Shown here: positions 51,053 through 62,207 of the stretch, in pieces
Numbering within the stretch: the stretch's first letter is position 1
How the letters are laid out: every line of letters begins with the position of its first letter
Assembly (NCBI GenBank): GCA_049852185.1
Contig: CP187540.1
Strand: one strand, 5' to 3'
DNA from: Methanocaldococcus sp. 28A
Lineage (GTDB): Archaea; AGJL01; Methanococci; Methanococcales; Methanocaldococcaceae
Length of the DNA: 64,000 nucleotides
Position numbers and translations under genes: made by a program
Notes under the pieces: model-generated
The model's input: the letters and a program-made list of their open reading frames with translations, nothing else
What the model was told of the DNA's origin: nothing
The model's database searches: none

Positions 51053-52087
51053 ATGGATTATCTAAAAATCTTAGAGGATTTAGTAAAAATTAGAACAGAT
51101 AATAGAATTGGTGTTAAAAAAGCATTTAAATATTTGTCTAATCTTTTCAACAACTTAGGAATAAAAAATACTATCATTGATGGATGTTTTATAGCTTATA
51201 AAGAAAAAGAAAACTTTGATTTGATATTAAATTCACATATAGATACTGTAAAAGTTCAATCAAATTTTAAAAAAGATGAAAATAACTTTTATGGAACTGG
51301 AGTTATAGATGCCAAGGGAAATGTTGTTTTAATGATTCATGCTTTTTTAAACACTAATAAATCATTATTGGTTATCTCTCCCGATGAAGAAAAAGAATCA
51401 AATGGTATTTATAATTTTTGCCAACATTTAAAGGATAAATATAAAATTAAAAAGGATATTAAATGCATAGTTGGTGAGCCAACTGACTTAAAAGTTTGTA
51501 TTGGGCATAAAGGAAGGTTTGAATACATTGTAGAAAGTTTTGGTAAAGCGAAGCATGCTTCATCATCTAACTGCATAAATCCAATAGAAATTTTGAGCTA
51601 TGTCATTTTAGATTTAAAAAATCTCCATTTAAAAAAGATTAAAGTTGATAAAATATATAGTTCGTCAATAACTCCAACAATAATAAATGGTGGAATTCAA
51701 AGCAATATTATCCCAGATTATGCTTATCTCTTATTTGATGTTAGAAGTGTTGAGAAAAACATAATAAAAAAGATAGACAACTTTTTATCTCAAAAAAAAT
51801 ATTCAAAGCATATAAAAAGTGGATTAAATCCAAAAAGGCATTATGCAGATTTCTATATGCTTGAAAATAAAGAACTAATAGATAAATTATCTAAAGAGTT
51901 TGAAATATCATTTTTCAATGCCACCTGTGAAGCATATTACTTCAACAAATTTTTAAACGCTGATACTATTATTTATGGTGTAGGAAAATTAGAACTTGCA
52001 CATTCTAAAGAAGAGTATTTAAATTTAAATGATTTTAACATAGGAATTAAAAGAATAGAAAAGCTTGCAGAATTAATTAAAGAATAA
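51053..52087 (+). CDS. M20 family metallopeptidase/deacylase
   Basis: [25 protein letters not shown]. Confidence 0.9.
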
Positions 52088-52098
52088 TGGGAGCAAAA

Positions 52099-52200
52099 AT
52101 GGATGTAAATAAAATTTACTGTATAGATTGTTTAGAGGGAATGAAAGAATTAAAAGATAAGTCTGTCATAGTTGTTACTTCTCCTTTATAAAATTTAGGT
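52099..52200 (+). pseudogene. 5' remnant of a beta-class N4-C/N6-A DNA methyltransferase
   Basis: [33 protein letters not shown], a decayed TSPPYN motif; cut by the IS. Confidence 0.8.
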
Positions 52201-52201
52201 A

Positions 52202-53400
52202 CAGTATCTCCAAACATCATAAAATAAACAGAAAAGTTAATATTTCATAATATTGAATAATATTTGAATAATTATTAAAAAAATAGGGGGAGATGGAACA
52301 ATGAACGACATAAGATTGTTGGCTATAAAATCATTTAACGAATTTAACGAATTCATAAGCAATGTTCTTCAAATTTGTCTAAGGATTTATGAGTTGAGGA
52401 TTATGCAATAGGACTTATAGAGGCAATGTCGAATAACACATACTTAGAGACTGTTAGTAAGCTAAATTATCCATCGGCAGACTCTTACTATCGATATATA
52501 AATAAGGCAGGTAATTCTATGTTTAAAGAAATTTATAAATCTTTTGTTAAAAATATATTCAATGATTTAAAAAAATAATAGAAATTTTTGCCTATCGATA
52601 GATACGCATTATGATGCCTATTATGGTAATAATTTAGATTTAGAATTAATTCACGAATATAGAAAAGAGAGGGGCAGTACTGGTTCGTATAAATATATAG
52701 CTGCTACATTACATACTGAAGATTTTTCGTTAATAATCTATTGTGATATTCTTGTTAAGGAAGATTCGTTGCTTAATCATGTGAAGGAAATTATGGGCTT
52801 TACTATTAACGATTTAGAAATAAATCCATCTAATATTGCAGTACTTACCGATAGAGAGTTTAAAGACTTTGAAATAATAAAAATTTTTGAAAAATACGGA
52901 TGTAATTACATAAGCTTTATTCCGAAAAATGATAAAGTTAAATACTATCTTGAGGAGGAATATAAAAAAGAAGAAAAATGGAAATTCGATTATGTTATCG
53001 ATAAAAATACTATTCCTAAATTAGTTATTGCTGAGGACGAAATAATTACAAACTACAAAAGAAAAAAGGTATATTATACCTTTTTAACTAATATCGACTT
53101 TGAAAATCAAGAATCTTACATAAAAATGTATAAAAAACGATGGAATATTAAAACACGATTTAGAATGCTTAAAGATGCAGTTATAAAAACGAAATCAACC
53201 TCTTTAAAAGTTAGGTTGTTCCTTTTTATGCTTAAATGCGTTATTCATAACTTATGGATTAAAATTCGTAATAAAAAAGAATGTATTTCTTTAAAATTCT
53301 TCATCGTCGAAATATGTAAGTTATTAAATGAGTTCGATTATTCAATCATGGTTATGCGTAATACTCCGTTGTGTATACCTATGCATATTCGTAGATACTG
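52202..53400 (+). mobile_element. ISH3/IS4-like element with frameshifted transposase
   Basis: TIR CAGTATCT...AGATACTG; IDDT, TDREF and YKKRWNI(K)TRFR DDE motifs in broken frames (ORF 52769-53404). Confidence 0.8.
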
Positions 53401-53697
53401 GTAGACATAACAAGCAATGTAATTTTAAATACATTGTTAATAATCTCTGGAGCAATGTTTAATATTTTAGTTATAAAATTATTAAAATTAGAGAAACTAT
53501 TATTGGAAAATAGGTATTTGTTAATGATATATTTAGTAGCTGTAGTTGTTGCTATGAATATATTTGATTAGATAGCTCGACCGATTATCTCTAATTATTT
53601 TAACGTAATTAACTACGTACCATTATCATTTTTTGTTGGGTTTGGAGGAGGAATATTGGTTTCATTCTTTTATTTAATTGCATGGAAAAAATCATAG
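53401..53697 (+). pseudogene. Truncated small multi-TM protein (immunity-like)
   Basis: 99-codon hydrophobic frame ...AMNIFD*IARPII...FFYLIAWKKS*, 5' end removed at the IS boundary. Confidence 0.6.
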
Positions 53698-53817
53698 ATG
53701 TTTAATTCACGCGAAATTTTAGAACTATAATGTTCTAATCTCTGCAATTTCATTTTATATAATTTAGTTTTATCCTTAAAAATCAGTATAACAAAAATTC
53801 ATCTTAATTGTGAAACC

Positions 53818-53982
53818 ATAAAAAACTTACTATCAATATTAACACTCCTAATTTTCTCAATGGGATTCATATTTGGCTTTATATTCATAAATGACTTTTC
53901 AAAAAACTACAAAGGAGAAGAAATAAATTAAAATTTCTACTTTTATATTACTCCAAAAGTTGCAAATTTAGTTATAAAATAA
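53818..53982 (+). pseudogene. SpoIIM scar 1 (internally deleted)
   Basis: FINDFSKNYKGEEIN joined to YITPKVANL, both matching 57699-58256. Confidence 0.85.
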
Positions 53983-54227
53983 ATTTTACTTTTATAAAGT
54001 TTTAGTTATTTTAGAATTATTAAAAATCTTAATTGGCTAATTATTTGTATATTTATGCTTTACTATTTAGTTTAAAATAGTAATATATATATGTGTTTTT
54101 ACATTTATAATTATGAAAAATGTGGAAAATGATATGATATTAAAAAGTATGTTAAATTAAAAAATATTTGGCGATGATGCCCTCTATGGGCGGAGCCAAT
54201 ATTAACGGGCTATATTGAACCACCATA
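53975..54227 (+). repeat. About 250-bp duplicated promoter/5' UTR block, copy 1
   Basis: Near-identical to 56752-57001. Confidence 0.93.
54170..54197 (+). promoter_or_regulatory. Kink-turn hairpin in 5' UTR, copy 1
   Basis: GGC-GAT-GA-TGCCC-TCTAT-GGGCG-GA-GCC. Confidence 0.7.
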
Positions 54228-54240
54228 GAAAGGTGGCATT

Positions 54241-54543
54241 ATAAATATATTAAAGGGTAGTGTATTAAAAGTTTTCGGAGCTGTAGTTTTAGTTAGCATG
54301 ATAGGTGCTTTAGTAGCTGAGCCTGTTGCTTTAGGGGATATTGGAGTGGCTTATTATTTAAAATATCATAACGATTATGGATATATTGATGATGGAAAAG
54401 ACTATGGTAAAAAAGGAATAAAAATTCTTGCAGCGGTAGCTGCAATTGAAGAAGTTGAAGGAACTACTGAAGCAGCTGTTTTAGCTGCATGTGGTCTTAC
54501 TGGTATAGGATTAGTAGCTGTGGGAGCCACAATGGTTTGCTAA
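54241..54543 (+). CDS. Bacteriocin/archaeocin-like precursor 1 (start codon position reads ATA; probably impaired)
   Basis: Frame open from ATA 54241 behind a GGTGG RBS; leader aligns codon for codon with precursor 2 (..ALVAEPVALGDIG); Gly/Ala-rich hydrophobic core. Confidence 0.7.
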   Translation: MNILKGSVLKVFGAVVLVSMIGALVAEPVALGDIGVAYYLKYHNDYGYIDDGKDYGKKGIKILAAVAAIEEVEGTTEAAVLAACGLTGIGLVAVGATMVC

Positions 54544-54574
54544 ATCTATAATAAGTATAAGTAGTGTGATAATT

Positions 54575-54967
54575 ATGAAATCTTTTATTTTTTATTTTTT
54601 TTATAATTGGCGTACAATATTAAATTTATGGATAGTATTTATTGTTGTTTTATTAGCTATTGTAACATTAAAACCTAAAATATCTATTAACATTAAAAAA
54701 TCTGGGGCGATATTGGTTATTTGTATAATTTATACATTACTAAATATATTTGCTTATTATGTTATAGGAAATATTAGTTTAAACATATTGTCTAATGTTT
54801 TTATATCTGTTGTATTATTTGGAATTGGAATAATATTGTATGTTAAGTACCAGTCTGAAAAATTAACAAATAATACTGTTAAATATGCAGCAATTGTGTT
54901 ATTGTTTTTGTCTTTAATAGATGTAATAGAATTATATATAAAAATTCTAATTAAATTAGTTTCTTAA
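54575..54967 (+). CDS. Small 4-TM membrane protein, candidate immunity protein 1
   Basis: Hydrophobic and basic, directly after precursor 1. Confidence 0.65.
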   Translation: MKSFIFYFFYNWRTILNLWIVFIVVLLAIVTLKPKISINIKKSGAILVICIIYTLLNIFAYYVIGNISLNILSNVFISVVLFGIGIILYVKYQSEKLTNNTVKYAAIVLLFLSLIDVIELYIKILIKLVS

Positions 54968-54975
54968 TTTAAATA

Positions 54976-56108
54976 TAGGACTTTTGCAAGCATATTTAAA
55001 TATTTATTATAATATTTCATGATAATCTATTTTTATCAGATATTATAATTTTTCGAAACAAAAGTTTATTTTGGGGAAAATATGCTAAAAATGTCGAGGA
55101 CTATCGTTTATATGCTTTTTATATTACTTTCAGAGATTAATTCGTGTGTAGAGTTATCGAAAACGTTGCGTATTTTCGGAATCGACATATCTCACGATAC
55201 AATAAATAGAATACTTTGGGAAGAAGGAATCTTCCCACAAGAAAAGCTTTTTAATTTCGTTAAAGATTTAATCACTCCTGATTATAATATTGTCGTTATA
55301 GATGACTTTGTTATAGATAAAATTTACTCTAAATCGACTGAATTTGCTTATTATTGTTGGAGTAATCTACATAAACGAGTAATTAAAGGCTTACATATCG
55401 TTGATTGCATAATTACAAATGGAAAACATATTATTCCAATCGATTTTAGAGTATATGACAGACCAAGAGATGGAAAGACGAAAAATAATTTATGTAGGGA
55501 GATAATAAAGTCTTTAGTGGATAAAGGATTAAATATTAGATATATCTGTTTCGATAGTTGGTATTCAAGTAAAGATAACTTAAAACTTATCGATAGTTTA
55601 GGTTTATTCTACCTCTGCAGAATTAAAAGGAATAGAAAGGTAAAACTCTCCAAAAACAGAGAGTGGGTATCAATCGAAGACATTAAGGAAATTCCTAAGA
55701 ATGGATTAATCGTTTATCTACGAAAAGTTGGCTATGTCAGACTCTTCTGCCTTTCCAAAAACGGAAAGGCAAAATATTATATAACTAATAACCTATTTAT
55801 GAGTTTCGAAGAATTCCAAGAGGTCAAAAACGCCTCTTGGAGAATCGAGGAATTCCATAGAGGTGTTAAACAGTGCTGTAATACAGGCAATTTCTTCGTT
55901 AGAAAAAAATTTCCAATTTTAGGTCATATCTCCCTTTCTATGAGAGCTTTTTACCTCTTAGAGAAAATTAGAATCGATAAAAATATTAGTTGGTATGAAC
56001 TTAGAAGAAAACTAAATCGAATAGCTGTTGGTAATGCCATAATCTCTTTGTGTGAAGAAATTGGTTTATCGTTAATCTAAGTATTTAAATGTGGATGCGA
56101 AAGTCCTA
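54976..56108 (+). mobile_element. IS701-family element, intact copy
   Basis: TIR TAGGACTTT(T/C)GCA, 8-bp TSD TTTAAATA. Confidence 0.94.
55082..56080 (+). CDS. IS701-family DDE transposase
   Basis: VIDD, FDSWYSS, WRIEEFHRGVKQ. Confidence 0.93.
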   Translation: MLKMSRTIVYMLFILLSEINSCVELSKTLRIFGIDISHDTINRILWEEGIFPQEKLFNFVKDLITPDYNIVVIDDFVIDKIYSKSTEFAYYCWSNLHKRVIKGLHIVDCIITNGKHIIPIDFRVYDRPRDGKTKNNLCREIIKSLVDKGLNIRYICFDSWYSSKDNLKLIDSLGLFYLCRIKRNRKVKLSKNREWVSIEDIKEIPKNGLIVYLRKVGYVRLFCLSKNGKAKYYITNNLFMSFEEFQEVKNASWRIEEFHRGVKQCCNTGNFFVRKKFPILGHISLSMRAFYLLEKIRIDKNISWYELRRKLNRIAVGNAIISLCEEIGLSLI

Positions 56109-56142
56109 TTTAAATATTTAATTCAAATCTGCCTGTGAAACC

Positions 56143-56255
56143 ATGAAAAAACTACCATCAATATTAACAATACTTAGATTAGAATATTAATCGTTATAGC
56201 AGCTTTCATATAGGTTTATATTACTCCATAAGTAGCAAATTATTTATTGGCATAA
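56143..56255 (+). pseudogene. SpoIIM scar 2 (internally deleted)
   Basis: MKKLPSILT start fused to IAAFI*VYITP*VANYLLA*. Confidence 0.78.
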
Positions 56256-56311
56256 GGTTCAAATAGATTATAAGGATAGGATAATAAAACCAAAATTAAG
56301 GTGGTTTAAGA

Positions 56312-56524
56312 ATGAAAACAATTAAATTTAGAGTTTATTATGATGGGAAGTATTGGGTTGCAGAAGGTATTGATGTAAGTATATTTACACAGGGAGAGAC
56401 GTTAGATAAATTAATGAAAAATATTAAGGAAGCGGTAGAATTACATTTTGAAGATGAGTTAAAGGCAGGAGAAGTTATAAAAATCCTCTCAGTCTCTGAA
56501 ATGGAGGTGCGAGAATTTGCATAA
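56312..56524 (+). CDS. hicB: HicB-like antitoxin
   Basis: IFTQGETLDKLMKNIKEAVELH. Confidence 0.88.
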   Translation: MKTIKFRVYYDGKYWVAEGIDVSIFTQGETLDKLMKNIKEAVELHFEDELKAGEVIKILSVSEMEVREFA

Positions 56525-56759
56525 ACTTCCAGTTGTTAGTGGTAGAGATTTAATAAAATTCCTTAAAAAGTTGGGATATGAGATTGTTAGACAGAGAGGT
56601 AGTCATGTAAGATTAAGAAAAGAAACTGAAAATGGTATTCATAATATAACTATCCCATATCATGATGAAATTGCTAAGGGAACTTTAAATGCTATTTTAA
56701 ATGATGTTTCTAAATGGAATAATATATCAAAAGAGGAATTGATAAAAAGACTAAAATAA
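56517..56759 (+). CDS. hicA: HicA mRNA interferase toxin
   Basis: LGYEIVRQRGSH, TIPYH, GTLNAIL. Confidence 0.92.
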   Translation: MHKLPVVSGRDLIKFLKKLGYEIVRQRGSHVRLRKETENGIHNITIPYHDEIAKGTLNAILNDVSKWNNISKEELIKRLK

Positions 56760-57001
56760 TTTACTTTTATAAAGTTTTAGTTATTTTAGAATTATTAAAA
56801 ATCTTAATTGGCTAATTATTTGTATATTTATGCTTTACTATTTAGTTTAAAATAGTAATATATATGTGTTTTTACAATTACAATTACGAAAAATGTGGAA
56901 AATGATATGATATTGAGAAGTATAAAAAAATTAAAAAATAGTTGGCGATGATGCCCTCTATGGGCGGAGCCAATATTAACACGCTATATTGAACCACCAT
57001 A
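56752..57001 (+). repeat. About 250-bp duplicated promoter/5' UTR block, copy 2
   Basis: Near-identical to 53975-54227; has BRE/TATA GAGAAGTATAAAA. Confidence 0.93.
56944..56971 (+). promoter_or_regulatory. Kink-turn hairpin in 5' UTR, copy 2
   Basis: Identical 28-mer to 54170-54197, about 23 nt downstream of the TATA box. Confidence 0.7.
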
Positions 57002-57013
57002 AGAGGTGACTAA

Positions 57014-57295
57014 ATGAATATATTTAAAAGGAACATACTTAAAGGTTTCGCTGCTGTGGCTATGCTTTGCATGGTGGGAGCTGTGTTTGCTACACCAGTG
57101 GCTTTGGGGGATGTTGGCGGTGCATTATATGGATATTGTGCAGCTGCAGATAATACAAACAATCACCCAATTGCTCACGCAGCAAAAGCAGGATTTGAGG
57201 TAGGAATGGGAACAGCCGCGCTTTATGCAGGACTAGTAGCTGCTGAAATAGCAACAGGAGGAACTTTTGTGGTATTTTTAGGACTTGCTATGTAA
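57014..57295 (+). CDS. Bacteriocin/archaeocin-like precursor 2 (intact)
   Basis: Signal-like leader (K/R n-region, h-region, AVFA), conserved PVALGD, Gly/Ala-rich 60-67 aa core, GGTGA RBS. Confidence 0.75.
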   Translation: MNIFKRNILKGFAAVAMLCMVGAVFATPVALGDVGGALYGYCAAADNTNNHPIAHAAKAGFEVGMGTAALYAGLVAAEIATGGTFVVFLGLAM

Positions 57296-57363
57296 ATCTT
57301 TACAATAATTTTATTAATTTATTTTTTGATTTGGTTTAAAAATATTAATTTGGTGTGATTGGT

Positions 57364-57663
57364 ATGAAAATTAATAACCGATGTGTATGTCACGTCCTAT
57401 TTCCTGAGTATTATTTATACACAATAGGGAAAAAACAAACAGGAAGAATTAGGGAAGCGCTATTTTCCATGTCATTTTTATGGATATTTGTTAAAATCTA
57501 TTTGATATTGGGGTTTATAGTTAGTATAGTGTATCAAGTAAATTTTTTTACATCTAGTGTGTTTTTAATGGTATTTGTGATGTTAATAATTACATTTAGT
57601 ATTATTGTAAAGATTAATATCCAAAAAAAAAAGAAGAGTGGCAGTAATACTATAATAATCTAA
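57364..57663 (+). CDS. Small 2-TM basic membrane protein, candidate immunity protein 2
   Basis: Hydrophobic helices, poly-Lys tail, directly after precursor 2. Confidence 0.6.
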   Translation: MKINNRCVCHVLFPEYYLYTIGKKQTGRIREALFSMSFLWIFVKIYLILGFIVSIVYQVNFFTSSVFLMVFVMLIITFSIIVKINIQKKKKSGSNTIII

Positions 57664-57698
57664 ATTTAACTATTGAATGAGGATAAAAATGTGGTGGC

Positions 57699-58256
57699 AT
57701 GAGAACTGGAAGTAAATTATCACTAGTATTAATATTAGTAATCTTTATGTTTTTAGTGGGCTTCATTTCAGGTATCTTCTTCATAAATGACTTCTCAAAA
57801 AACTATAAAGGGGAAGAAATAAATCAAAAACCAAACTTAAAATTTAATTTTCCTTTTATATTAACAAACAACTTAAAAGTTATCTTTCTAATGTTAGCAG
57901 GTTCTATAACCTTTGGTTTATCCACTTTTATAAACTTAATATTTAATGGTTTTAATGTTGGCGTTTTAATTGGTTCTACTTTTCAAACTAATGAACCTTT
58001 AAAACTTATTGCTGGTTTGATTCTTCCACATGGAATATTTGAAATTCCAGCAATGCTTATATCGGCAGTAGCAGGTTTTAAAATACCGTATGAAATAACT
58101 CTTTATCTCTTAGATAAGAAAGAAAAGCCAATAACAGAAGAAGATATAAAAGAATTCTTAAAATTAGCATTAATTTCAATAATTCTAATTATTATAGCCG
58201 CTTTCGTAGAGGTTTATATTACACCAAAAGTTGCAAATTTAATATTAAATATTTAA
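57699..58256 (+). CDS. SpoIIM/DUF95 membrane protein
   Basis: ILTNN, FNGFNVG, LPHGIFEIPA, AAFVEVYITP. Confidence 0.92.
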   Translation: MRTGSKLSLVLILVIFMFLVGFISGIFFINDFSKNYKGEEINQKPNLKFNFPFILTNNLKVIFLMLAGSITFGLSTFINLIFNGFNVGVLIGSTFQTNEPLKLIAGLILPHGIFEIPAMLISAVAGFKIPYEITLYLLDKKEKPITEEDIKEFLKLALISIILIIIAAFVEVYITPKVANLILNI

Positions 58257-58332
58257 GGCATAAGGAAACTGATAACCATTTATATATAACATTACATTAA
58301 AATTAGATATCAAAAAAATAAAAGGTGAAATA

Positions 58333-58986
58333 ATGGATATAAAAGAACTCATCTTAAATCCAAACAATTTCTTTAAAAATTTAGCAAATAGAGAAATCTC
58401 TCTTAAAGAGCCATTTATTATTATTTTAATTTTCTCTATATTAATAGCAATCTCTGCCTATATCTCAACTTCAATAATATACAAAATATTTCCACCACAA
58501 TATCAACAAATTATGGCATTCACAAAAATAATTGGCTTAGTATCAACATTTATTGGAGGATTTATTGCTTGGATAATAGTAGCAGGAATTATGCATCTAA
58601 TATCAATTGCTTTTAAGGGGGAGGGAAGTTTTAAAAAGACACTATCTTTTGTAGGTTATGGATTTATACCCAACATTATAGGGGCATTAATAACTATTCC
58701 TATTGCATATTATTATTTATCACAAATCCATATTCAGCCATTGACTATATCTCAATTACAAAACCCTATTGTTGTTAAAATGATTATGAAACAGATAATC
58801 CCAAGAACTTTAATATACACCAATGCATTAATAGGATTTGCTGTAACGATATGGAATTTGTATATATGGACTTATGCTATAAAATATGCAAGAAACTTAG
58901 ATTTAAAGAAAGCATTTATTGTAGCTCTAATCCCAACAGTTATATTTGGTTTATATCAACTATACAGTGTATTAAAGTTTTTATAA
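58333..58986 (+). CDS. Yip1 family membrane protein
   Basis: LILNPNNFF, GEGSFKKTLSFVGYGFIP, about five TM helices. Confidence 0.88.
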   Translation: MDIKELILNPNNFFKNLANREISLKEPFIIILIFSILIAISAYISTSIIYKIFPPQYQQIMAFTKIIGLVSTFIGGFIAWIIVAGIMHLISIAFKGEGSFKKTLSFVGYGFIPNIIGALITIPIAYYYLSQIHIQPLTISQLQNPIVVKMIMKQIIPRTLIYTNALIGFAVTIWNLYIWTYAIKYARNLDLKKAFIVALIPTVIFGLYQLYSVLKFL

Positions 58987-58999
58987 GTTGGGGGAAAAT

Positions 59000-60517
59000 A
59001 TGAAGGGGTTGAAAAATCTATTGGTTATTTTTTCACTTTTATTCCTTTTAACTCAAACCTCAGCTTATATAACATTTAAAAATATTGATTATAAAGCTCA
59101 ATACTTAGAGCCATCAAAAACCTATGATTTATATGTAACGTTTGAGTCAGATGAAGAGATTAATAACACCGTTGTTTATATAAAACCTTATAACCAAATG
59201 TCAGAAAATAATATCCAAATTATTAAAGGTAAGCAGTGGATAGGACATCTTTTTCCATCTGAAATAGGTGTTGCTCATTTTATAATAAAAGTTAGCCCAA
59301 ATGCACCAAATTATGATTATAGTATGGTAGTTTATTGCAACTATACTAAAAATGGAGAGCAATACTCTGAAAATAGAATTTTTACACTACCAGTAAGAGG
59401 AAAAGCCAACGTAATTGTAAAACCTGATAACTACATTCTACAAGTAGGAACTAATAAAGTTTTAATTTTATTAACAAATAAAGGAACAGGAATTGCTGAA
59501 AATATTAAAATAACATTCCAAAATTCAAACAATCTAATAATTTTAGGAGATAATACTTTCACAATAACTTCTTTAAATCCAAAAATTTCTACCTACATTC
59601 CACTAACAGTATTTGCTAAAAAAGAGGGAGTTTATTCAATAAATTATAAAATATCATACGAAAATCCTTATGATTTATTGGAATTAACTCAAAAATCAGA
59701 AACAATAAATGGGGATTCAAAAACAGAAACTTTAACCTATCAGAATAAAAATATAGTTGAGAATATAGGTATTTTAACATTCAATGTATTTCCAAATGAG
59801 TTGGTCTCAATAAATATGAATAATCCAATAATCACAGTTGGAAAGATTGAAAATCTGACAATTTCAATAAAAAATAATTATAAAGATTCTTTATTTATAG
59901 TCCAAATAAGTAAATACTTTATTGGAAATAACCAAAAAACCGTATTCATTAAAAAAGGAGAAACAAAAAATTTAACCTTTCAAATAAAAGTTGATAAAGA
60001 AGGAATTATCCAAATTCCTGTAGTTATATATTTCGATAACAATCAAATAGAGAAAAATTTAACAATAAATGTTATAGGAAAAGCTGATTTGGTTTTAAGT
60101 GGAATTGATGTAGAAAATTCATTTGATGACGTTAAAATAACTGGCGATATAGACAACATTGGGACTGGAAAGGCGAAGAGTGTTCTAATCTCAATAGAAA
60201 AAACAAACAATATAATTCCAAAAAAGCCATATGAAAACTATTTTGTTGGGACATTAAACCCAGATGACTATGGAAGTTTTGAATTACACTGCCAAATTAA
60301 TGGAACTGTGAATGAGATTCCAATTAAAATAACATATAGGGATGAAAATAACAACTTAATAACAATCCATAAGACAATAAAAATTAATAGGGAACTTATT
60401 TCCTTAAAAAATGAAAATAGTGGTGGAATTAATTATTTAGTAATTGGAATAGCAATTATATTTGTTATTGGAGTAGTTTATTTAATTTATAGAGGATTTG
60501 TAAAGAAAAATTATTAA
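59000..60517 (+). CDS. COG1361 (S-layer-domain/CARDB-like) secreted, C-terminally anchored ABC accessory protein
   Basis: Signal peptide, NKGTGIA and NIGTGKA repeats, GTLNPDDYGSFEL, C-terminal TM. Confidence 0.82.
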   Translation: MKGLKNLLVIFSLLFLLTQTSAYITFKNIDYKAQYLEPSKTYDLYVTFESDEEINNTVVYIKPYNQMSENNIQIIKGKQWIGHLFPSEIGVAHFIIKVSPNAPNYDYSMVVYCNYTKNGEQYSENRIFTLPVRGKANVIVKPDNYILQVGTNKVLILLTNKGTGIAENIKITFQNSNNLIILGDNTFTITSLNPKISTYIPLTVFAKKEGVYSINYKISYENPYDLLELTQKSETINGDSKTETLTYQNKNIVENIGILTFNVFPNELVSINMNNPIITVGKIENLTISIKNNYKDSLFIVQISKYFIGNNQKTVFIKKGETKNLTFQIKVDKEGIIQIPVVIYFDNNQIEKNLTINVIGKADLVLSGIDVENSFDDVKITGDIDNIGTGKAKSVLISIEKTNNIIPKKPYENYFVGTLNPDDYGSFELHCQINGTVNEIPIKITYRDENNNLITIHKTIKINRELISLKNENSGGINYLVIGIAIIFVIGVVYLIYRGFVKKNY

Positions 60518-60725
60518 AATATGTCTGAATGAAAGTGAGAATGTGATTTGATGGATAAAAAATTTACATAATATTATTTTTATCACTCATTAAATCTTAA
60601 CATGGTAATTTAACAGTGAAATAATAAATGGAAAAAAGATATGGAAAGAAATCAGGAGTTAGCAGACATTATGAAAGGAATTTTAATAGAAAGAGGTGAA
60701 TTAAGATAATAATGGGGTGAATAAA

Positions 60726-60991
60726 ATGAAGAATGTAGATATAGATAATCTACAAGCATTTGTTTATTAAATATGCGAAGCTATTAAAGAAAGAGTTTTA
60801 GAAGCTAAAAAAGAAAAAGACGAAGCTGAAAAACATAAGGATAATGATAAGGAAGAGTATATGTACGCGGTTGGTAGATTATTGGGTCTAACGAAGTGAT
60901 ATCAATAATTAAGCAAACGGCAGAACCTCTTGGAATAGATTTGAAAGAGTTAAAACTTGATGATATAGATCCAGACAAGGATTTGATATAA
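60726..60991 (+). pseudogene. Small acidic protein pseudogene (immunity-like)
   Basis: GGGGTGA RBS; MKNVD...Y*ICEAIKERVLEAKKE...(frameshift)EVISIIKQTAEPLGIDLKELKLDDIDPDKDLI*. Confidence 0.65.
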
Positions 60992-61087
60992 TATATTGAA
61001 ATATTCGTATTTTCTACTTAAGGTCTAATCTCCTCTATTATTTATTTCATCGTCCTTTAAATCTTAATAAATATTTATGGTGAACTA

Positions 61088-61472
61088 CTGAATGATTTAA
61101 TATTAAATCTAGATAAATTTTTCAAAGAGATTGTAACTAAACCAATGAATTTAAAACTTCCTTTAATAATAGTCCTATTATGGTCTTTAGTTAGTTCAGC
61201 TGTTATTTTATAGTTGTGTGCAAAATAAAATAAACTTTTATAATGACAATTACTAATTCCTTACTTTAATTAAGATGCTTTTGCACACAACTATAATTCC
61301 AATGGTATATTTTGAAGGTGTTGAAGATGTCATGTTGTTAATTTTAAAATTTATTATTTTGTTTATAGCTACATTTTTATCTAATACACTAATTTTATTA
61401 ATTATTGCAGGAGTTTCTCATATAATTTTAATAAAATTTTTATTGAATCTTCTAAGTAATGTGGCAAGTTAA
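61088..61472 (+). pseudogene. Second Yip1 paralogue, MITE-disrupted and truncated
   Basis: LNDLILNLDKFFKEIVTKPMNLKLP aligns with the 58333 Yip1 N-terminus; frame restored on MITE removal. Confidence 0.8.
61211..61293. mobile_element. MITE family A copy
   Basis: Perfect TIR, TA duplication. Confidence 0.92.
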
Positions 61473-61502
61473 ATTTTTGTAAGATACTATTAGAGGGAAA
61501 GA

Positions 61503-62207
61503 ATGATTAAACTAAAAAATGTAACAAAAATATACAAAATGGGAGATGAGACAATATATGCCCTAAAAAATGTAAATCTAAGAATAAAAAAAGGAGAATT
61601 TGTTTCAATTATGGGGCCTTCTGGAAGTGGAAAATCTACACTTTTAAATATTATTGGTTGTTTGGACAAACCAACAGAAGGAGAAGTTTATATTGATAAT
61701 ATAATGACAAATGACTTAGATGACAATGAATTAACAAAAATTAGGAGAGATAAAATTGGTTTTGTTTTTCAGCAATTTAATTTAATTCCTTTATTAACAG
61801 CTTTAGAAAATGTTGAACTTCCACTAATTTTTAAGTATAGAAATGCTATGAGTGAAGAAGATAGAAAGAAAAGAGCTTTAGAATGTTTAAAAATGGCTGA
61901 GTTAGAGGAGAGATTTGCCAATCACAAACCAAATCAGTTAAGTGGAGGACAACAGCAAAGAGTAGCTATAGCGAGGGCTTTAGCTAATAATCCACCGATT
62001 ATATTGGCAGATGAGCCTACAGGAGCTTTAGATAGTAAGACAGGAGAAAAGATAATGATATTGTTAAAAAAACTAAATGAAAATGGAAAAACCATTGTTG
62101 TTGTAACACATGATATAAACGTTGCAAAATTTGGAGACAGGATAATTTATTTAAAAGATGGAATGATTGAAAAAGAAGAAATATTAAGGGGAGATTATGA
62201 TAAATAA
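61503..62207 (+). CDS. ABC exporter ATPase (LolD/MacB type, MJ0796-like)
   Basis: GPSGSGKST, FVFQQFNL, LSGGQQQR, ILADEPTGALD, VTH. Confidence 0.96.
   Translation: MIKLKNVTKIYKMGDETIYALKNVNLRIKKGEFVSIMGPSGSGKSTLLNIIGCLDKPTEGEVYIDNIMTNDLDDNELTKIRRDKIGFVFQQFNLIPLLTALENVELPLIFKYRNAMSEEDRKKRALECLKMAELEERFANHKPNQLSGGQQQRVAIARALANNPPIILADEPTGALDSKTGEKIMILLKKLNENGKTIVVVTHDINVAKFGDRIIYLKDGMIEKEEILRGDYDK

Follow-up and report, generated by a model that had tools for sequence, protein, structure and literature searches.

Candidate toxin/immunity cassettes with a conserved leader and hypervariable peptide cores in Methanocaldococcus sp. 28A

Introduction

The circular-bacteriocin gene clusters of Bacillota (gassericin A/acidocin B, AS-48 and cerecyclin) combine, according to the available text of PMC8534725 and PMC13289728, a precursor made of a leader and a hydrophobic, helical core of ~60–70 residues with a SpoIIM/DUF95 protein (PF01944), a small hydrophobic partner gene and an ATP-binding cassette (ABC) ATPase with its permease. 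The cerecyclin cluster also has a YIP1 protein, and SpoIIM/DUF95 is given as the class-defining gene (PMC13289728). Archaea go unmentioned in the available text of two in-silico surveys of such clusters (PMC8534725, PMC7132975). Here we describe an array with the same kinds of genes, YIP1 included, in a 64,000-nucleotide stretch of DNA (the window) from contig CP187540.1 of Methanocaldococcus sp. 28A (GenBank assembly GCA_049852185.1), where two open reading frames (ORFs), copy 1 and copy 2, encode small precursors with a common leader. The array differs from the circular-bacteriocin clusters in its archaeal host, its lack of a sequence match, its highly conserved Sec-like leader, its larger partner proteins, its one DUF95 gene per cassette and its tandem arrangement.

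Polymorphic toxin systems, reportedly described by Zhang and colleagues in 2012 (cited in PMC9425974), resemble these genes in joining a variable C-terminal part to a conserved N-terminus for export, in the specific gene immediately downstream, in tandem and orphan cassettes, and in lateral transfer. The classical polymorphic toxins are large proteins with enzymatic toxin domains, whereas the variable parts here are hydrophobic peptides of 46–97 residues in which no domain is recognised. Sec-dependent class II bacteriocins and the Bacillus subtilis SdpC/YknWXYZ system combine signal-peptide export of small membrane-active peptides with protection by a Yip1 protein and a MacB-type ABC transporter. 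Homology with YknWXYZ is not supported, the Yip1 protein of the window scoring 32.5 bits against the NCBIfam model YknW_fam, far under the cut-off of 110.

The cassette loci themselves are already known. Makarova et al. (2014, 2015) described arCOG01996 cassettes in Methanococci, Thermococci and Archaeoglobi that are, by gene content, the same type of locus (a SpoIIM-like paralogue, small diverged membrane proteins, Yip1 (arCOG02054), a SalXY-like ABC transporter and S-layer-like proteins), and the main texts read them otherwise, as defence (PMC4158269) or as membrane remodelling and vesicles (PMC5898192). The conserved leader, the specificity between core and partner, the bacteriocin parallel and the kink-turn (K-turn) described below are absent from these main texts. 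In the literature searched, arCOG01996 is named solely in these two papers. A search for Methanocaldococcus together with circular bacteriocin returned unrelated papers only, and a 2026 preprint on bacteriocins in archaea makes no mention of circular, SpoIIM, DUF95, Methanoc or Yip1; prior publication of a bacteriocin reading may exist.

Results

Two precursors with a common leader and dissimilar cores

The N-termini of copy 1 and copy 2 align by BLASTP of the translations with 21/39 identities, 29/39 positives and no gaps (E 2e-12), and the alignment ends six residues past the GD of (E/T)PVALGD. The cores that follow GD, 67 residues in copy 1 and 60 residues in copy 2, give no BLASTP alignment with each other at E ≤ 100, and in a profile comparison their last 20 hydrophobic residues align and nothing else does (hhalign probability 94%). 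The membrane-protein ORFs downstream of the two precursors are dissimilar as well (best E 0.26). A gap-free common leader, divergence beyond GD and unrelated downstream ORFs had been reported in the initial annotation of this DNA, and the comparisons agree with it on all three.

The ~255 nt 5′ of both ORFs are 92–94% identical between the copies (237/257 columns, or 92%, in one alignment), whereas the DNA identity is 68% over the leader and 42% over the core. In the 1.56 Mb genome, which belongs to the order Methanococcales, the block and the precursor protein are each present as two copies only. Because the upstream block is far more conserved than the genes and just two genomic copies exist, chance does not account for the likeness of the leaders, which is real. 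Copy 2 has the sequence GAGGTGA ahead of its start codon; the frame of copy 1 is open from 54229 to 54543. The base composition of the window is about 25–30% G+C.

A narrow archaeal family of small peptides

A word-indexed search of 5.8 billion proteins yielded 120 candidate relatives, 17 of them at E ≤ 0.01 and all 17 annotated as 'hypothetical', with Methanothermococcus okinawensis, Methanocaldococcus infernus and Methanococcus aeolicus as the named sources. A search of 1.84 billion representatives with a profile matched only 43 representative clusters (E ≤ 1e-3), among them a few giant low-complexity proteins. In six-frame searches the family was found in 17/40 Methanococcales genomes and in 13/30 of those of high quality (the phylum-level search covers the same 40 genomes as the order-level search), often as several copies within a genome, 1.3–1.6 kb apart. 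Throughout the family alignment a nearly invariant leader is followed by hypervariable sequence and an end that is always hydrophobic. A conserved-leader, variable-core family in archaea had been anticipated from the two window copies alone, and the profile and six-frame searches bear it out.

The cores range from 46 to 97 residues (median about 67–69), are rich in Ala (17%) and Gly (16%) and, in 31/36 precursors, carry no charged residue in the last 12 positions. None of the 44 precursors scanned against Pfam has a meaningful match at E ≤ 0.05, the variable part thus showing no recognisable toxin domain, and none of the five scanned against NCBIfam has any match. AlphaFold gave four helices at low confidence both for core 2 alone (pLDDT 57.7) and for core 1 with a 12-row alignment (pLDDT 52.4), and a complex prediction for the cassette 2 partner with its mature peptide returned no verdict, at a score of 0.01. 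The nearest named cluster in the ESM Atlas is 'glycine zipper' at 0.77, a lead only. The best explanation for the precursors appears to be that small exported peptides of a narrow family, confined to archaea as far as the matches go, are encoded here.

A profile of the SpoIIM-like protein encoded next to the precursors detected 55 loci in species-representative genomes, many in Thermococcus, Archaeoglobaceae and Geoglobus metagenome-assembled genomes. Eleven of the 27 non-Methanococcales loci with enough upstream DNA have, under a strict filter, a small upstream ORF that is G/A-rich and begins with a hydrophobic leader; at least two further loci of this kind were recognised by eye. On the Thermococcus/Archaeoglobi side the leaders are conserved per lineage and resemble the Methanococcales leader, and some cores end in ATGG followed by hydrophobic residues.

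The leader has the build of a signal peptide

Read from the sequence, the leader looks like a Sec-type signal peptide: a basic n-region (K/R in residues 5–10) is followed by a 16-residue h-region, and the residues at −3 and −1 are small. Two candidate signal-peptidase sites are present, one between VFA and T and the other between ALG and D (P at −5, A at −3, G at −1, D at +1); the pattern [GS][AVS][VAL][FVLI][AT] occurs in 47/48 leaders. PVALGD had previously been proposed as a recognition motif for processing or cyclisation. With the n-h-c build of a Sec signal this needs correction: PVALG may simply be the c-region of the signal peptide, with cleavage at the ALG-D site.

Two other classes of exported protein were considered and rejected. 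The precursors have no lipobox, and class-B leaders (the class of copy 1; copy 2 is class A) carry S where class-A leaders have C, which speaks against lipoproteins. An archaeal type IV pilin (class III signal) is contradicted by K, not G/A, before the hydrophobic stretch of class-B leaders and by the lack of a match to any pilin family.

The same leader, with the same K-turn, also stands ahead of proteins of 190–390 residues with other bodies. Examples with no Pfam family are L029 1455–2376 (−), L040 6338–7150 (−) and L039 2193–2765 (−), and there are further frames of 256–391 residues (L and G numbers denote loci and genomes of our set). Each is followed by a gene for a membrane protein or a small soluble protein. 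The export system of the precursors may carry these long proteins as larger cargoes.

Cassette architecture and partner specificity

Gene maps of ten loci and a systematic parse revealed a repeating unit, or cassette, that consists of the precursor, a small membrane protein (ORF1, mostly with 2–4 transmembrane (TM) segments, starting 4–80 nt past the precursor stop) and a SpoIIM/DUF95 protein of ~180 residues. The two-gene layout of the initial annotation had missed this third gene, which is present once per cassette in 23/36 cassettes. The unit is repeated 2–6 times in tandem arrays, 3′ of which lie genes for a Yip1 protein, a CARDB protein of ~500 residues, an ABC ATPase and a MacB-type permease. 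A full-length CARDB orthologue occurs in 21/40 genomes, including 15 of the 17 that bear precursors. Since this gene set matches that of the bacterial circular-bacteriocin clusters, a toxin/immunity role is plausible, and the best-supported reading of the loci is that the cores are membrane-active bacteriocin-like toxins (archaeocins) carried in toxin/immunity cassettes; we judge this reading to have about the same chance of being right as of being wrong.

The parse reduced 67 leader matches to 48 non-redundant ones and kept 36 cassettes after removal of proteins longer than 135 residues, cores cut by locus ends, cases with no complete ORF within 160 nt, and duplicates. Cores and ORF1 proteins were typed by BLASTP clustering, which replaced a global-identity single-linkage scheme that over-merged the G/A-rich cores, and the 36 cassettes fell into 18 core types and 25 ORF1 types. 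The ORF1 type matches in 13/34 pairs of cassettes with the same core type and in 0/596 pairs with different core types, as the earlier proposal of a core-specific downstream partner would have it.

Mantel tests, in which the leader served as the internal control for specificity, link the core to ORF1 (r 0.63, reached in 0/2000 permutations) and to the N-terminal 60 residues of the SpoIIM-like protein (r 0.49, 0/2000). The corresponding value for core and leader is r 0.06 (167/2000), and both leader classes are found inside 4/9 multi-member core types; leader type is independent of core type. Membership in the same genome goes with the leader (r 0.31, 0/2000) and with the C-terminal 60 residues of the SpoIIM-like protein (r 0.21, 7/2000) and shows no significant association with the core (r −0.02). 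Across cassettes the SpoIIM-like protein has a mean identity of 37% over its N-terminal 60 residues and is 85% identical over its C-terminal 60. The variable module thus comprises the core, ORF1 and the SpoIIM N-terminus, and its flanks (the SpoIIM 3′ end, the intergenic leader and the signal peptide) are uniform within each genome. A conserved N-terminal part, a variable C-terminal part and a type-specific gene directly downstream make up the layout of polymorphic toxin-immunity loci.

Co-variation of three membrane proteins would also fit interacting subunits, and the cassettes could instead supply variable subunits to a complex of SpoIIM-like, Yip1 and small proteins in the membrane; the peptides would then be anchored components and not toxins, and the complex would serve membrane remodelling, vesicle formation or self/non-self recognition at the surface. 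A membrane role is the published reading of the arCOG01996 cassettes with their Yip1, SalXY-like ABC transporter and S-layer proteins, as far as the main text of PMC5898192 goes, and the long hydrophobic end of the core could be a membrane anchor. The charged tail that usually follows a C-terminal anchor is lacking in 31/36 peptides, however, and a patchy occurrence (17/40 genomes), decay by insertion sequence (IS) elements, orphan partner genes and transfer of modules between families would not be expected of a housekeeping complex. We regard this alternative as rather unlikely, about half as probable as toxin/immunity cassettes.

Partner-type genes also occur as orphans with no precursor, at L033 4169–4582, L034 14038–14379 and L041 7958–8419, and a further homologue (G000:C1:741487–741657, outside the window; 72% identical over 58 residues) lies in a genome from which its usual core type is absent. 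Such orphans are better accommodated by immunity than by sensing, which bears on the idea that the peptides are secreted, pheromone-like signals with the specific membrane proteins as their receptors. Type-specific pairing of peptide and membrane protein and the presence of export machinery would suit that idea; the long, hydrophobic, G/A-rich cores and the lack of a kinase or other signalling domain in the partners (Pfam) do not, and we consider signalling very improbable.

Cassette 2 of the window, to which copy 2 belongs, is closely related to a cassette of G026, a genome of another family: identity is 84% for the core, 79% for ORF1, 87% for the SpoIIM-like protein and 83–84% for the precursor over its full length. 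The neighbouring CARDB gene is 54% identical. That the cassette is closer to G026 than its neighbour gene is points to lateral transfer of whole modules.

A K-turn hairpin in the 5′ leader

All but two of the Methanococcales precursors examined have one or two hairpins 24–86 nt before the start codon. Their consensus layout comprises a canonical (C) stem YYGGC/GCCRR, a 3-nt bulge, tandem GA/GA and a non-canonical (NC) stem of 4–8 bp. Besides the two window copies, such hairpins, sometimes as tandem pairs, are found at L007, L014, L016–L018, L021, L022, L029, L031, L033–L040 and L043–L047; at the Thermococcus and Archaeoglobi loci the hairpin is absent. Among 32 distinct hairpins the NC helix is 100% paired with at least seven different stems, and 4/7 pairs change on both sides. 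Paired cells amount to 94.2%, against 80.3% in shuffles (0/500 reach the observed value) and 25–42% in slid controls. In the genome that contains the window the hairpin occurs twice and no more, each time ahead of a precursor, and it is missing from five shuffled versions of that genome. By its layout and its compensatory changes the predicted element is a covarying K-turn RNA motif of the precursor 5′ leader.

Regulation by L7Ae through K-turns in 5′ untranslated regions (5′-UTRs) is known in archaea (PMC5539422). The hairpins have the features given for the archaeal L7Ae-binding 5′-UTR K-turns in the available text of PMC5539422 and PMC6298567 (C stem, 3-nt bulge, tandem G·A, NC stem, position in an mRNA 5′ leader), and they differ in standing ahead of genes for exported peptides instead of the l7ae gene. 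By analogy, they may be L7Ae binding sites.

A second hairpin is predicted over the Shine-Dalgarno sequence; the Shine-Dalgarno tetramer is paired in 27/29 sequences, yet a fraction of 0.71 is paired in shuffles, so that sequestration of the ribosome-binding site is weakly supported. A scan of positions 52000–60000 against Rfam gave no match at E ≤ 1. A sigma-70 promoter scan found fewer sites than in shuffles and is not meaningful for an archaeon.

Probable loss of the copy 1 start codon and decay of the array

The initial annotation treated copy 1 as a precursor on a par with copy 2. Between the in-frame stop at 54226–54228 and M24 (54298), ATG, GTG and TTG are all absent from copy 1. Homologues in G006 read ..GGNMNILKGSVLK.. 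where the window reads ..GGIINILKGSVLK.., with ATA at 54241–54243 in place of the ATG of G006. Initiation at M24 would leave little of the signal peptide. Copy 1 has therefore probably lost its start codon and become a pseudogene, and the loss would be recent because its core is still 94% identical to that of G006.

Judged by its gene remains, the array as a whole is decaying (Table 1). Cassette 0 is a remnant whose ORF1-type pseudogene is 74% identical (tblastn) to residues 35–132 of the 140-residue ORF1 of L009, the aligned region being interrupted by a stop. Cassette 1 has kept its partner, which is 91% identical to the ORF after the same core type in G006 and 66% identical to that in G016; its SpoIIM gene is gone, and the IS element and hicBA occupy the place. 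A SpoIIM remnant was sought at the location of the IS element, and none was found. Cassette 2 alone is intact.

Table 1. Features of the cassette array in the window (positions are those of the window).
Feature	Position	Strand	Remarks
Transposase fragment DDE_Tnp_1, truncating the 5′ side of decayed cassette 0	52769..53404	+	Pfam E 2.6e-06; ORF1-type remnant directly after
Cassette 0 ORF1-type membrane-protein pseudogene	53398..53694	+	5′-truncated; in-frame stop near 53575
Cassette 0 SpoIIM-like remnant	53824..53967	+	N-terminal piece fused to C-terminal YITPKVAN piece, middle deleted
Copy 1 conserved upstream block (presumed promoter and 5′ leader)	53985..54240	+	92–94% identical to 56760–57013
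K-turn-type hairpin, copy 1	54168..54199	+	C stem UUGGC/GCCAA, GAU bulge, tandem GA/GA, NC stem GCCC/GGGC
CCACC...GGTGG hairpin over Shine-Dalgarno sequence	54220..54236	+	In minimum-free-energy fold; weakly supported
Copy 1 precursor, 100 codons, probable pseudogene	54241..54543	+	Class-B leader, EPVALGD, 67-residue core; ATA at start position
Cassette 1 partner, about 4 TM segments, 130–133 residues, intact; putative cognate immunity protein	54566..54967	+	
IS transposase (DDE) at place of cassette 1 SpoIIM-like gene	55082..56080	+	Pfam DDE_Tnp_2 and DDE_Tnp_1
hicB-like/hicA toxin-antitoxin pair separating cassettes 1 and 2	56312..56759	+	HicA_toxin E 3.8e-19
Copy 2 conserved upstream block	56760..57013	+	K-turn hairpin 56942–56973; CACC/GGTG hairpin 56995–57008
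Copy 2 precursor, 93 codons (93 residues)	57014..57295	+	ATG start; class-A leader, TPVALGD, 60-residue G/A-rich core
Cassette 2 partner, membrane protein, 99–102 residues; putative cognate immunity protein	57355..57663	+	79% identical to ORF after same core in G026
Cassette 2 SpoIIM/DUF95-family membrane protein, 185 residues	57699..58256	+	PF01944 E 4.1e-36
Yip1-domain membrane protein, 217 residues	58333..58986	+	PF04893 E 2.6e-30
Exported CARDB-domain protein with C-terminal anchor, 509 residues	58988..60517	+	PF07705 E 3.5e-05
ABC transporter ATPase	61503..62207	+	PF00005 (ABC_tran) E 7.1e-39
Membrane protein between ATPase and permease, 132 residues	62197..62595	+	No family match
MacB-type permease (FtsX and MacB_PCD)	62600..63697	+	PF02687 E 1.3e-22; PF12704 E 5.6e-18

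Two DDE transposase ORFs, one of them truncated, lie in the cassette array. The hicB-like gene scores 24.1 bits against HicB_lk, under the cut-off of 27. Pairs of hicB and hicA recur beside the cassette SpoIIM-like gene, or in its place, in the window and at L038 8068–8515, L009, L039 6721–7008 and L052 4693–5115, including one fusion remnant of a SpoIIM N-terminal part with a HicA C-terminal part and one Archaeoglobaceae locus.

The company of hicBA pairs and IS elements in the same islands would be in keeping with membrane-associated defence against viruses or foreign peptides, in which the ABC transporter exports incoming antimicrobial peptides, and the available text of PMC4158269 puts forward 'novel membrane-associated defense systems' as the role of these loci, which adjoin a SalXY-like transporter. 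No cassette gene resembles a known defence protein (no PADLOC scan was made), and a small hypervariable peptide that bears a conserved export signal is more easily understood as an exported product than as a sensor; a defence role seems to us improbable, though less so than signalling.

In the window, ~1 kb of extra DNA (60518–61502), which holds small ORFs only, at 60805–60978 (−) and 61275–61472 (+), separates the CARDB gene from that for the ABC ATPase; in G006 (L037) the two genes are contiguous. A gene for an archaeal AAA-type ATPase of ~340–365 residues recurs by other arrays (L037 3961–5043, L039 8030–9127, L041 4538–5551 and L052 1939–2982) and was not seen adjoining that of the window.

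Discussion

Each swappable cassette consists of a precursor, a small membrane protein specific to the core type and a SpoIIM/DUF95 protein with a cassette-specific N-terminal part, tandem cassettes standing in front of the shared Yip1, CARDB and MacB-type ABC transporter genes. The precursor gene has a conserved 5′ leader, and its product carries a Sec-like signal peptide ending in (T/E)PVALG-D ahead of the hypervariable, G/A-rich core of 46–97 residues. If the cores are bacteriocin-like toxins, the core-specific membrane protein would act as the cognate immunity factor, and DUF95, Yip1 and the ABC transporter would provide export and self-protection, as in the circular-bacteriocin clusters of Bacillota. 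The conserved flanks (SpoIIM 3′ end, intergenic leader and signal peptide) would allow cassettes to recombine and to move between genomes.

The initial annotation had already suggested toxin-immunity pairs reminiscent of gassericin A. The toxin-immunity part of that suggestion has gained from the core-specific partners, the orphan partner genes and the presence of SpoIIM/DUF95, Yip1 and ABC genes; the likeness to a known bacteriocin has not, as no precursor matches a bacteriocin family (44 scanned in Pfam, five in NCBIfam). Other observations also weigh against toxin/immunity cassettes. The leader on proteins of 190–390 residues fits a general export signal, and to our knowledge such a Sec-like leader is unlike the leaders of known circular bacteriocins. 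The partner proteins range from 63 to 201 residues, and some are apparently soluble. Gene pairs that stay together would also be expected of subunits of a variable membrane complex. The genomes compared are related, not independent, and the specificity counts overstate the support. The low-confidence models of the cores suggest just that these are helical.

Cyclisation of the cores is possible by analogy with the Bacillota clusters, and we think it doubtful. We would place the following proposal at the same low level: that these are the first archaeal circular bacteriocins, cyclised head-to-tail and each with its own DUF95 and immunity protein, shuffled through their conserved flanks among hyperthermophilic Methanococci, Thermococci and Archaeoglobi, with translation in Methanococcales checked by an L7Ae-bound K-turn.

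Almost nothing is known of how methanogens and hyperthermophilic archaea fight or recognise each other. If the cassettes are toxin/immunity modules, they would represent a widespread archaeocin system at hydrothermal vents, one that could be tested in a tractable Methanococcus or Methanocaldococcus. Messenger RNAs with the K-turn leader would be a further class that L7Ae may regulate, and the poorly understood SpoIIM/DUF95 and Yip1 families would, if the reading is true, be linked with immunity and the export of peptides in a second domain.

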